A stretch of 64,000 bases of DNA from an uncultured delta proteobacterium (GTDB lineage Bacteria; Myxococcota_A; UBA9160; SMWR01): contig CAWHTE010000002.1 in NCBI GenBank assembly GCA_963832165.1, positions 320,001 to 384,000 on the forward strand. The letters are read 5' to 3'. The translations under genes and the position numbers were made by a program. This document shows, one piece after another, positions 45,565 to 51,923 of the stretch. How positions within the stretch are numbered: the stretch's first letter is position 1; each line of letters begins with the position of its first letter. The notes under the pieces are model-generated. The model saw nothing but the letters and a program-made list of their open reading frames with translations, made no database searches and was not told the origin of the DNA.

Positions 45565-45822
45565 TCACTTGCTGAAGTGTTTGACCAGAAAGAATCGGGC
45601 CAACTGCTCGCCTTCCTCGGTCAACACCACGGACTTCGACTTCGAAACAGGATCTGAGATCCAGCCTCTTTCGAATAGGAGATTCATGAGGTCCCAATCG
45701 AGCGCCTTCCAGACGCGCCCGCCGTGCAGGGTCAGGCCGAGCATGGCGAGCGCGACCTCCGCGAGCTTGTCCGAATCCAGCTCGTCGGGGAGGCGCGCAG
45801 GACGTTCATCATCGTGAGTCAT
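45565..45822 (-). CDS. DUF6429-like small protein (distal cassette)
   Basis: WKALDWDLMNLL.E.G.I.DP..KSKSVVLT.EG. Confidence 0.75.
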   Translation of the reverse strand: MTHDDERPARLPDELDSDKLAEVALAMLGLTLHGGRVWKALDWDLMNLLFERGWISDPVSKSKSVVLTEEGEQLARFFLVKHFSK

Positions 45823-45839
45823 CGTGGTGCTTGCATGTC

Positions 45840-45897
45840 GCATGACGCTGTCACTCAGCCGCCGGCGGAGCCGGTCGGCTCCAGTGGCTGGTTAGAC
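45840..45897 (-). repeat. attC1, short (58 bp), degenerate R' core
   Basis: Minus strand GTCTAAC...GTCATGC with internal palindrome. Confidence 0.7.
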
Positions 45898-47868: not shown

Positions 47869-48074
47869 TCTGTGTGCGGCCTAACGGATCGGCGCTCAGC
47901 TGTCGGCTCGCGGCAACCTTCCGCAACCCCACCGAGCTGCCTTGCCAGACTCTACCAGATTCCGCTAAGGCGCAGGCCGGTCATCTGCAGCGCCTTCCAT
48001 GAGAAGGCCAGCCTCGTCAAGTGGCGAATAACATTATTTCGTCTCTTATCACGACGCGCAGGCTCCCGAGTCGA

Positions 48075-48240
48075 ACCACCACCAGGCTTCCATCCGCACT
48101 CTCGATGACCTCGGTCTCGCGAGGTCGGTGCACACTGAGGTCCTTGGGCGTCGGGTGCTGCAATCTTGTTATCGACCTCTCCTTGCGAAGGGCCCGGCGT
48201 TATAACGCAGTCACCCGGACACGGCGGTCTCGATCCATCA
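48075..48240 (-). ncRNA. Candidate bridge/seek RNA of the IS110 element; boundaries approximate
   Basis: Two stem-loops whose internal loops carry TAACAAG (target match, 48165-48171) and ATGGAAG (donor junction match, 48087-48093). Confidence 0.75.
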
Positions 48241-48245
48241 CGGCT

Positions 48246-49346
48246 CTACGCAGCCTGCACGGAAGCGACTCGCACGGGCTCGTAGACCTCTCCCGTCGTC
48301 CACAGACGGTGCAAGAGGACGGCGAGCCGTCTCGCCACCGCGACGATCGCGCGCTTGCGGGCGATGCTCCCTCCGCGCTCCCCCATGCGAAGGCCCGCAC
48401 GTCGCAGATCCGTGTCGGGACCAAAGGGCCCGAGGATGTAGTGCGCAGCACTCACCAACAGACGCCGCAACAGTCGATCCCCTGCCTTCGTGATCCGTAG
48501 CTGGGGATTCTGTTCCCCCGAATCTCGTCGCTTCGGACGAAGCCCGACGTACGCTCCTACTGCGCGGCTCGTCGCAAATCGGCGCGGGTCCTCGATCGTG
48601 AGCACGTAGTACAGCGCCGTGATCGGCCCCACGCCCGGCACCTGGCGCAGCAGCTCCGTCTCCGGGTAGCGCTCTCGGCACAGCTGCTCCACCTCCCGGT
48701 CCATTTGCCGTATCGTCGCGGTGAGCTGCTCGATCGTGTCGAGGAGCGTCTCCAGCCCGGGGAACAGATCCATCGGCGTCGTCGCGCGCACCCGCTTTGG
48801 AAATGCCTCCGTCGAGCTCGCCGGAACACGCGTCCCCAGCGCCTTCGCGAAACCCCGCACCTGATTCACGAGCTGAGTCCGAGCCCGTACGAGCCCATCC
48901 CGCGTCTGGATCAGGATCCGGTCTCGCTGCGCCTGCGCCCCGCGGTGCACGATCGGCTTCAACAGCGACGGATCCATCCGCCCCAGGCGCGCCAACAGCT
49001 CCGCATCGACGCCGTCGCTTTTCGAGTCGTTCTCCGCGATCAGCCGCACTCGGCGCGGATTCGCGACGATCGCCTCGTGCCCGTGGCGAACGACACAGCG
49101 ACTAACCCATGGCGAGTGCGTCCCTACCTCGAGAACAACCCGACTTGGTGGGAACGAAGCCAACCGCTCCGTCATCGCCGGTTCCGTCGTGCGCACCCGA
49201 AATGCCTCGATCACTGCGCCCGCCGCGTCGAGCACCCGTCCCTCGGTCCACCGGTCGCCTAGGTCCAGACCGATCGTCAACCCGCTCGTGATACGATCAC
49301 CCACGCCAGCCTCCTGTTTGGGACCCACTCCGTGGTGAGCCCGCAA
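48246..49346 (-). CDS. IS110-family DEDD transposase/recombinase
   Basis: IGLDLG, VLEVG, KSDGVDA, VPGVGPITA, YVGLRP..RDSG, ITKAGD..LR, AIVAVARRLA. Confidence 0.96.
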   Translation of the reverse strand: MRAHHGVGPKQEAGVGDRITSGLTIGLDLGDRWTEGRVLDAAGAVIEAFRVRTTEPAMTERLASFPPSRVVLEVGTHSPWVSRCVVRHGHEAIVANPRRVRLIAENDSKSDGVDAELLARLGRMDPSLLKPIVHRGAQAQRDRILIQTRDGLVRARTQLVNQVRGFAKALGTRVPASSTEAFPKRVRATTPMDLFPGLETLLDTIEQLTATIRQMDREVEQLCRERYPETELLRQVPGVGPITALYYVLTIEDPRRFATSRAVGAYVGLRPKRRDSGEQNPQLRITKAGDRLLRRLLVSAAHYILGPFGPDTDLRRAGLRMGERGGSIARKRAIVAVARRLAVLLHRLWTTGEVYEPVRVASVQAA

Positions 49347-49403
49347 TCGTTGCAGACCTTCACGGTACTGCGTTCAGGAGGCTGGCCTTCTCATCCCATC
49401 TTG

Positions 49404-49907: not shown

Positions 49908-50021
49908 GCCTAACGGATGGCCGCTAAGCTGCGGCCGCGCGAAATGCTACCACGACCCGCAAGCGCACAGCTGGCCGAGCTGTTGAAGCCCGCGGCCGTC
50001 AGCTTCAGCGGCTTGTTAGAC
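49908..50021 (-). repeat. attC6 (114 bp)
   Basis: Minus strand GTCTAAC-aagccg-CTGAAGCTGAC...GCAGCTTAG...GTTAGGC. Confidence 0.9.
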
Positions 50022-50387
50022 GGCCACTCGCGCTGGTCGCCAGAACTCCACGAAGAACGACGTTCGGCCTGACAGTGCAACGTGGTGCTCTACCTCAGGC
50101 AGCACGATGCCCGGAGACGCCGGGGTGAGCCGCTGACATCGATTGAAAGGTGCATGCACATAATAGTCGATAGGGCCGTGAGTAATCTGGATGCGAGCCC
50201 AGATGCCTCGCTTCGTGGTGTGAAGCTTGAGGAGAGCTTCAGGAACTGAACTCTCATCGAAGTCTGGCGTTCGGTGGTAGGGCTCGTAGCCGAGTGGAAT
50301 CTCGCTGCGATCACATTGGACACAGTCGAGATCTGTTCCGATCCGCGATTGGCGGCCCTCGGTAGTGAGTACCCATCGTCGGTCGGA
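50009..50387. repeat. ~379-bp direct repeat of 50886-51264 (3' part of the first cassette plus the attC end)
   Basis: Offset 877 bp, about five mismatches by eye. Confidence 0.93.
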
Positions 50388-50885
50388 TCAGAAGCGCGGC
50401 GACCCTACCTGCGTGCTGATCACGGCGCGGTCCGTCACGCAAAGAAGGCCAAGACAAACGAACGCGATGTCTGCGGAAACCTGGGCGCTCGAGCGAAAAA
50501 ATGAACGAGCGCGCGGTCACAACAAGGCGGCGGTCGCCCTGGCGAACAAACTCGCGCGGATCGTATGGGGGGTGTGGAAACACGACCGCGCCTACTGCAG
50601 TCCGTCTCAGAGCTAGAAACCCCATCGGCTGATTCGAGCGAACGACGATGATGGCGCACCGGTTCGGACCGGCGCAGGACCAGGCCGACAACAAGCATGG
50701 CCTCAGAGGCCGCTGTCCAGCGATTGGCCCCCTGCGCGCGACTTTCCATCATGGCCCGGAGCCGAGTGCTCCACACACGAGGCCGGAGATACGACTGCAG
50801 TCGAACCCAGCGCCAAAATCGTTCGAAAGGAGCTCCGAAGTAAAAGATCAGCGCGAAGAATCAGATTGACGGAGGAGTCCAGATA
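50388..50885 (+). mobile_element. Partial second IS1111-type element: transposase C-terminus, non-coding region and right end
   Basis: KRGDP..., RGHNKAAVALANKLARIVWGV, stop 50616; end TTGACG...GGAGTCCAGATA abutting CGGCTTGTTAGAC. Confidence 0.85.
50645..50810 (+). ncRNA. Candidate seek/bridge RNA of the second element; boundaries approximate
   Basis: AACAAGC (50690-50696) and TCCAGCG (50716-50722) match both sides of target TTCAG-CG-GCTTGTT; AGATACG (50787-50793) matches the element end. Confidence 0.72.
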
Positions 50886-50892
50886 CGGCTTG

Positions 50893-51366
50893 TTAGACGG
50901 CCACTCGCGCTGGTCGCCAGAACTCCACGAAGAACGACGCTCGGCCTGACAGTGCAACGTGGTGCTCTACCTCAGGCAGCACGATGCCCGGAGACGCCGG
51001 GGTGAGCCGCTGACATCGATTGAAAGGTGCATGCACATAATAGTCGATAGAGCCGTGAGTAATCTGGATGCGAGCCCAGATGCCTCGCTTCGTGGTGTGA
51101 AGCTTAAGGAGAGCTTCAGGAACTGAACTCTCATCGAAGTCTGGCGTTCGGTGGTAGGGCTCGTAGCCGAGTGGAATCTCGCTGCGATCACATTGGACAC
51201 AGTCGAGATCTGTTCCGATCCGCGATTGGCGGCCCTCGGTAGTGAGTACCCATTGTCGTTCGGAGAAGGGCGGGCCGTGCCGCGTGTGTCGGCGGTGTCC
51301 GCACGCAAGCTCGGCAACCCATTCGGAATCGATGTCTTCGGCAAACGCGACGATCGGTCGATTCAT
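50893..51366 (-). CDS. First cassette: DUF3565-like N-terminus fused to a DUF1971 (TehB/YeaR-like cupin) domain
   Basis: WVAELACGH..H.RH.PP...R.WV...EGR...LDC..CD followed by RTPDF.E.SVP.ALL..HTTK.G.W...PEVEHHV...FFVEFW. Confidence 0.78.
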   Translation of the reverse strand: MNRPIVAFAEDIDSEWVAELACGHRRHTRHGPPFSERQWVLTTEGRQSRIGTDLDCVQCDRSEIPLGYEPYHRTPDFDESSVPEALLKLHTTKRGIWARIQITHGSIDYYVHAPFNRCQRLTPASPGIVLPEVEHHVALSGRASFFVEFWRPARVAV

Positions 51367-51383
51367 TGATTGTGGGAATGGCC

Positions 51384-51545
51384 GTCTAACTTGAATTCGA
51401 CAGGTCTGCGTAACACCCGGCACACAGCAGAGAAGCTGGCGTAACACGGGCGCAGGAGAGATATACCACGCGTGAAGCCGCCGTATCGCCAGCGTTTGCA
51501 AGCGGCAGCGGCGGTAGGTTCCGGCGTTGGGCAGGTCTGCGTAAC
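51384..51545 (-). other. attI-like site with direct repeats
   Basis: GTTAGAC core with no matching inverse core; CAGGTCTGCGTAAC at 51401-51414 and 51532-51545, GCGTAACAC at 51439-51447. Confidence 0.6.
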
Positions 51546-51653
51546 GCCGCCCGGGCAGGGGCGATCGCGTGTACTGCGCTCGGCGTGTCGCGCCCTCGTC
51601 GCGCCGGGAGTGGGAGGGGCGAACGAAGCCGCGGAACGCGGGTTTCACCCGCC

Positions 51654-51923
51654 CTACGCGGTCTCGGTGATCAACCGGTCGATCGCGTGAACGGGCGCAT
51701 CGTCGCCCTTCATGAGATGCGCGATCGCGGCATACACGCGCTGCTGCTGCACGACCCGGCCCTGCTGCGCGAACGTCGCCGATACGACGCGAATCTCGAA
51801 GTGTCCGCCGCCGTTCGCGCGCACCTCGACGCGCGCGTCGGGAAACGCCGCCGCGATCGCCCGCTCGAGATCGCGCGCCGTGTCGCCGGACGAGCTCGGT
51901 GAGGAGAGGATCTGGATCGGCAC
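51654..51923 (-). CDS. BolA/IbaG family protein
   Basis: GGHFEIRVVS..F....V.QQQRVY...HA. Confidence 0.9.
   Translation of the reverse strand: MPIQILSSPSSSGDTARDLERAIAAAFPDARVEVRANGGGHFEIRVVSATFAQQGRVVQQQRVYAAIAHLMKGDDAPVHAIDRLITETA

Follow-up and report, generated by a model that had tools for sequence, protein, structure and literature searches.

The stretch between positions 50388 and 50898 of the analyzed window (64,000 nucleotides in all) lies within an attC site of a cassette array and raises the question of which mobile element it belongs to, and whether that element encodes an RNA that would specify its own site of insertion. The initial annotation had read it as a second IS1111-type element, unrelated to the insertion sequence nearby, with RNA guides that spell out the attC target. 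We consider it roughly 85% probable that the element is the 3' part (the right-hand third) of an IS1111-attC insertion sequence, lying backwards in an attC, and that its downstream region, as modeled here, encodes a seek/bridge RNA with two loops, by which the transposase would be directed there. The features of the locus are as follows.

49908–50021, minus strand: intact attC ("attC6"), with the insertion point between 50008 and 50009 (from the sequence)
50008–50385, minus strand: the 3' three quarters of the cassette (copy A), offset by 877 bp from copy B (a duplication of 50885–51262)
50386–50508 (to ~50515), plus strand: mosaic zone of transposase letters, interrupted by 10 small indels in register with the cassette 5' end (likely a consensus or polishing artefact)
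50509–50616, plus strand: clean C-terminal 35 codons of an IS1111-family transposase (ARGHNKAAVALANKLARIVW...), stop TAG (by identity to homologues)
50617–50885, plus strand: downstream non-coding region (269 bp), with the predicted seek/bridge RNA and the right end (from the sequence)
50673–50736, plus strand: predicted target-binding loop module, with a basal stem, the closing stem GGCCGA/TTGGCC and the apical hairpin GGCCT-CAG-AGGCC at 50699–50711 (RNAalifold, 51 sequences)
50690–50696, plus strand: guide AACAAGC, the complement of GCTTGTT on the top strand, to the right of the insertion point (by covariation with right flanks)
50716–50722, plus strand: guide TCCAGCG, equal to the left flank plus CG at 6/7 letters and pairing with the bottom strand (by covariation with left flanks)
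50746–50752, plus strand: predicted right-donor guide CCATCAT, overlooked in the initial annotation; it is the complement of A/TGATGG, the junction expected when the ends are joined (from homologue left ends)
50787–50793, plus strand: predicted left-donor guide AGATACG, equal to the right end AGATA plus the target CG (by agreement with right ends)
50866–50885, plus strand: right end, with the -35-like TTGACG at 50866–50871, the subterminal inverted repeat GGAGGAGTCCAG at 50871–50882 and the ATA extension at 50883–50885 (same end in close homologues)
50886–50898, minus strand: R'' end (GTCTAAC-AAGCCG) belonging to the interrupted attC that follows cassette copy B (from the sequence)
50896–51369, minus strand: cassette gene copy B, complete, a DUF3565 and DUF1971 fusion (Pfam PF12088, 1e-24; PF09313, 4e-17)

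The plus-strand transposase C-terminus, read from the sequence, ends with a TAG stop at 50614–50616. Over its clean part, 26 of 29 aligned residues are identical in L064, the closest full-length proxy, 20 of 27 in ISKpn4, ISPa21 and ISPa62, and 17 of 28 in ISPa25. The 83-residue frame alone has no Pfam match; the full-length homologue L002 carries PF01548 and PF02371, the DEDD transposase domains of the IS1111 family. The end of the element reads TTGACG-GAGGAGTCCAG-ATA, followed by CG (50886–50887) and GCTTGTTAGAC. The window thus contains both the downstream non-coding region of IS1111 members and, with GGAGGAGTCCAG and ATA, their subterminal repeat 3 bp from the right end; the left subterminal repeat, 7 bp from the end, is present in the 65 homologues in which both ends were found, and is complementary at 11 of 12 positions in the closest. 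Homologues, mostly 1.37–1.45 kb long, typically consist of 7 bp (mostly TGATGRG) and ATGGACTCCTCC, as in the left ends of the close homologues, then the transposase, the non-coding region, and GGAGGAGTCCAG/T with ATA. The assignment to the IS1111 type with an attC target is supported.

The left end and the catalytic domain are absent from the assembly. No full-length or second copy, for which the initial annotation had advised a search, was found by blastn or tblastn in the genome of the same organism (89% complete). No Rfam family matches the window at gathering score, and a promoter scan of 50500–51700 returned no complete promoter. The sequencing runs listed include no RNA run, and the best of them shares 0.14 of words.

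Homologues were collected by a DNA search of 61 genomes, nine of which matched, including the genome of origin; in three relatives the homologues are full-length and occupy the same attC position. The set was widened by a 17-base pattern search of metagenomes (among the matches listed) and by a protein search of genomes (the best 79 loci of 248 relatives). Among the matches listed, 226 loci were obtained, 89 of them with a recognizable right end and enough non-coding region, and 88 after L194, which lacks a donor anchor, was left out. Three duplicates (L013, L144, L145), an element at a contig end (L106), a false end match (L155) and an element with a replaced 5' part (L015) had been removed before counting. 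Both flanks are available for 65 of the 88 elements, which yield 47 distinct guide pairs; a full protein is available for 52 of these 65 and served the nearest-relative pair test. The end pattern missed ISKpn4-like Pseudomonas elements, which the counts exclude. An attC-like right flank, by a loose pattern, is present in 49 of the 65 elements with both flanks. Three loci (L004, L029, L069) have an attC left flank and an unrelated right flank, as though one side had recombined elsewhere; they might be half-match events or assembly joins.

The array lies on the minus strand of the window, and its empty site reads TTCAG-CG-GCTTGTT at 50004–50017. The insertion is at the R'' end of the attC, the position used by ISKpn4 and ISPa25, with the junctions ATA/CGGCTTGTTAG in the window, ATA/CGACTTGTTAG in ISPa25 and ATA/CGAATTGTTAG in ISPa62. 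Element and cassette gene are opposite in orientation (transposase on the plus strand, cassette gene on the minus strand), as they are at the plasmid loci L223, L225 and L226. Such an opposite orientation to the cassette genes is reportedly general for IS1111-attC elements (Tetu and Holmes in 2008 and Post and Hall in 2009 are said to have described it).

The truncation of the element and the duplication of the cassette are probably artefacts of some kind, likely a chimeric long-read consensus in which an empty allele and a filled one were merged. In the transposase stretch 50388–50503, the window differs by ten indels from every one of the six closest intact homologues, whereas the next ~90 bp have none. 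The mosaic zone scores 55 against the cassette (51260–51392), a value reached by none of 2,000 shuffles, and the equivalent segment of 41 intact homologues scores 35 or less. Since the mosaic blends two unrelated sequences, consensus calling is indicated and not recombination. A 536-base contig from sequencing run X1 matches 50434–50822 with one substitution and four indels, the latter all within 50456–50503, and extends leftwards as in-frame transposase. Contigs from 4 of the 16 listed runs include none that spans the locus, and the parts that they leave uncovered prove nothing; because no read spans it, we can only infer the artefact. A collapsed true duplication is a possible source of it.

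The structure could instead be real, a tandem cassette duplication in which the insertion sequence entered the first attC and later lost its left two thirds to a deletion that also removed what remained of this attC and the beginning of the second cassette copy. The element would then be dead, with an RNA gene that, the same in either case, could still act in trans. Cassette duplication is common in arrays, the two copies differ by three substitutions in 50009–50376, away from the junction (two further ones adjoin the mosaic zone), and the neighboring long genes are intact, so that the assembly is not generally noisy. A deletion would, however, leave one junction, whereas here two unrelated sequences are blended over 120 bp with ten indels, and run X1 contains a near-identical element without those indels, which makes a real truncation unlikely. 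As the truncation is likely an artefact, the real element may be whole. The site that had been annotated separately as "attC6" is then probably the empty allele of the element's own site; both it and the filled site come after the same cassette gene, which makes it the right target for comparison, artefact or not. In long-read assemblies, an insertion sequence present in part of a population can thus appear as a false truncation together with a false cassette duplication.

The initial annotation had also proposed a CG core, which implies an IS621-like bridge system with one CG common to donor and target and duplicated on insertion. This would be in line with the left-target and left-donor guides, which in 83 of 88 elements both have CG as their last letters and in four have changed jointly to GG/GT, and with CG being the commonest right-junction pair (55/87). 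By contrast, of 65 left junctions 54 read TG and 2 read CG, and one five-copy set keeps TG on the left while its right pair reads TG, AG, GG, CG and GG. Because the left pair is constant and the right pair variable, CG stems from the target and TG from the element, and nothing is duplicated. With the homologues as proxy, the absence of a target-site duplication is apparent from the same dinucleotide occurring at both junctions in just 6 of 65 elements, and part of PMC11187229 reports that IS1111 members add no bases on insertion. A shared and duplicated core is accordingly very unlikely.

IS621, of the IS110 group (PMC11208160, in part), resembles the present element in having an RNA with two loops, for the target and for the element ends, each with guides for both strands. 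It differs in that its RNA lies upstream, its identical CT core is duplicated and long subterminal repeats are lacking, whereas here the RNA region lies downstream, the guide order is reversed and the junction dinucleotides are unequal. Membership in the IS110 group (IS621 type) was considered and ruled out by the downstream RNA and the TG left/CG right junctions.

Single-strand transfer has been reported for IS110-group elements (10.1101/2025.10.25.684509 and 10.64898/2026.08.31.748434, in the parts available). The fixed polarity of the junctions fits such a transfer by analogy, a link to the IS110-group reports that is our own. Tentatively, one may go further: donor and target cores would be unequal (TG versus CG), the donor loop would be written for the integrated junctions (AGATA-CG on the right, TG-ATGG on the left) more than for the circle, the polarity would be a genomic record of single-strand transfer by IS1111-attC elements, and the ~47 guide pairs found in nature, which have a 3-nt seed on the left and tolerant positions −4 and −5, would amount to design rules for an untested soil clade. 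We regard this extended reading as possible but doubtful; it was not found in the open-access literature searched.

The three motifs of the initial annotation, AACAAGC at 50690, TCCAGCG at 50716 and AGATACG at 50787, were confirmed letter by letter. In 20,000 dinucleotide shuffles of the non-coding region minus the terminal repeat, AACAAGC occurred 516 times, AGATACG 168 times, a 6/7 match to TTCAGCG 7,485 times, and all three together once; the 6/7 match of the left guide alone is at chance level. Its mismatch to TTCAGCG sits at position −4, and with the variant C50717T of sequencing runs X3 and X5 the guide becomes TTCAGCG, a 7/7 match. AACAAGC, the top-strand complement, lies 5' of TCCAGCG, the bottom-strand match, in the order of IS1111 seekRNAs.

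The guides track the flanks of their own elements over the 47 guide pairs. The right guide agrees with its own right flank in 6.0 of 8 letters (4.16 when shuffled) and the three letters of the left guide before CG with the own left flank in 2.68 of 3 (1.12 when shuffled), with 0 of 10,000 shuffles reaching either value. Agreement of the left guide is 41/47 at position −1, 44/47 at −2, 41/47 at −3, 24/47 at −4 and 27/47 at −5. As kin share letters, nearest relatives with different guides were compared too: among 26 such pairs, the own left guide fitted better than the swapped one in 24 (one tie, one against), and the own right guide in 17 (seven ties, two against). The initial annotation had named as contrary evidence homologues that insert elsewhere while keeping the same loops. 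For the target loop the opposite was found, since homologues with other flanks have correspondingly changed guides, including six elements at non-attC sites (L146, L148, L178–L181). The two target guides, as originally named, are real, and natural covariation confirms which letters of the RNA pick the site.

That the loop matches reflect chance or shared ancestry, with attC recognized by the protein alone from the folded site, is extremely improbable, for although the motifs are short, the left match recurs in shuffles and similar attC flanks are common to many homologues, the joint occurrence of the three motifs, the nearest-relative comparisons and the experimental reprogramming within the same family (PMC11187229, in part) all speak against it.

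The consensus fold was computed from 51 rows thinned to at most 90% identity, with L108, L071 and L087, whose target loops are altered or cut, left out. Both target guides are unpaired in it. The named stems are paired in 83.8% of cells, as compared with 25–47% in slid controls, and their covariation is 0.214 against 0.100 when shuffled (0/500), in a test that ignores relatedness; helices 2–4 are paired in 80–93% of cells, with changes on both sides. The fold of the single sequence is not unusually stable (z −1.48, 13/200 shuffles) and pairs 2 of the 7 letters of each target guide. Two of the 88 non-coding regions contain two target-loop modules, those of L040 (80–138 and 330–392 of the region) and L087 (12–70 and 360–421). 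In both, the second module, downstream of the donor loop, matches the own flanks (left GAACT and right CGCGGATGA in L040; right CGGGTGTA in L087) and the first does not, possibly a retargeting through an added stand-alone target loop.

The donor loop contains the AGATACG guide, whose proposed role is backed by its position −4: G or T there agrees with the right end in 88 of 88 elements (53 G, 35 T), largely as one clade split with about two independent events. In the four elements whose target guide ends in GG/GT, the left-donor guide ends in GG. The covariation of the right-donor guide is not significant (1,359/10,000), and the metagenome search pattern fixed that stretch by construction. AUC and GAU on opposite sides of the donor loop are predicted to pair, which involves 3 of the 7 letters of the left-donor guide (GAU). 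Motifs inside stems, which the initial annotation would have taken as evidence against its proposal, are consequently met with in part, for these three letters, the target guides being free; the basal donor helix as drawn is weak (69% paired). In a clade with the target TTCC(T/C)^GG (L178, L180, L181, L191), the target guides, the ending of the donor guide (GG) and the left end (TGAC, guide GTCA) have changed together, by sequence comparison a natural reprogramming of both loops.

Based on these results, a course of insertion can be proposed. The joined element ends would form a promoter, with TTGACG of the right end presumably as part of it, and the RNA would be expressed by being cut from the transcript of this junction promoter. 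Both strands of TTCAG^CGGCTTGTT would be bound through its target loop, in which the complement of the top strand comes first as is the order in IS1111, and its donor loop would pair with the element ends, AGATA on the right and TGATGG on the left. The element would enter between CAG and CG without duplication, the target keeping CG on the right and the element bringing TG on the left; such an outcome would fit single-strand transfer with subsequent replication or repair.

As judged from sequence, the element is related to ISPa25 and ISKpn4. The best plasmid matches of a homologue are ISPa21, ISKpn4, ISPa62 and ISPa25 (48–51%), and those named all belong to the IS1111-attC group. ISPa25 (plasmid locus L225) shares the layout of the ends (TGATGGA-ATGGACTCCTCC ... 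GGAGGAGTCCA-ATA, the right end also given as GGAGGAGTCCAT-ATA), the insertion point in attC (CTTGAG^CGACTTGTTAG), the orientation opposite to the cassette gene, and an RNA core with the same two loops that is identical in 93 of 130 aligned letters. It differs in its transposase (~50% identical to L064), in its right end CCAT-ATA and donor guide ATATACG (here CCAG-ATA and AGATACG), and in its target guides AACAATG/TTGAACG (here AACAAGC/TCCAGCG). A seekRNA with the same attC matches has been predicted for ISPa25 (PMC11187229, Suppl. Fig. 7, in part).

With ISKpn4, ISPa21, ISPa62 and ISPst6, the element shares the downstream non-coding region, the top-strand complement before the bottom-strand match, and the target at the R'' end of attC (L223 and L226; ISPst6 by description); the RNA core of ISKpn4 is identical in 89 of 125 letters. 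The transposases of ISKpn4, ISPa21 and ISPa62, in contrast, are 52–54% identical to L064, their left ends are different, and the close homologues form a starred clade of their own, with 33 rows within an open fork, in a quick tree of 91 rows built without an IS1111 or ISEc11 reference as outgroup. Part of PMC11187229 presents seekRNAs shown experimentally for ISKpn4 and ISPst6, with the same loop order and attC match, and both natural and engineered reprogramming within the IS1111 family, and for 93% of IS1111 elements a bridge RNA has been predicted in the right end (PMC11208160, in part). Targeting of attC by a guide RNA has thus already been published for ISKpn4, ISPst6 and ISPa25 (PMC11187229, in part); the present element is a further example and no new system. 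With it, the attC-seeking IS1111 group reaches beyond clinical Gammaproteobacteria into a widespread soil clade. Because IS1111-attC elements are compact programmable recombinases, both the guide variants found in nature and the TG/CG asymmetry of the junctions are of use to mechanistic studies and to design.

The first insertion sequence (window 47990–49400; transposase 48246–49346, minus strand) also interrupts an attC, at TAAC-AAG; it points the same way as the cassette genes and has the repeats GAGAAGGCCAGCCTC. Its transposase is 29% identical to the family of the element, compared by way of a full-length homologue, which bears out the original description of the two as unrelated, and at most ~35% identical to anything on plasmids; by sequence, it may represent a separate, unnamed attC-targeting lineage. 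Run X1 contains long pieces of this insertion sequence without differences.

No match to the integron integrase model TIGR02249 over the cut-off was found in the genome (89% complete), nor any on the contig; only generic tyrosine recombinases were detected, and the array looks like an attC cluster without integrase. It starts with GTTAGAC (51390–51384, minus strand), after GTTACGCAGACCTG repeats, in an attI-like manner, and no integrase gene follows in window 51384–51650; the adjacent frame is presumably BolA-like. In run X2 a different sequence comes after the array-start site, as if another cassette came first. A further cassette, at 45565–45843, encodes DUF6429. Two more attC-like sites with CAG-CG-GCTTGTT, both empty, are located on another contig of the same genome (G000:C4, near 694983 and 695780), and constitute a second array with potential targets.
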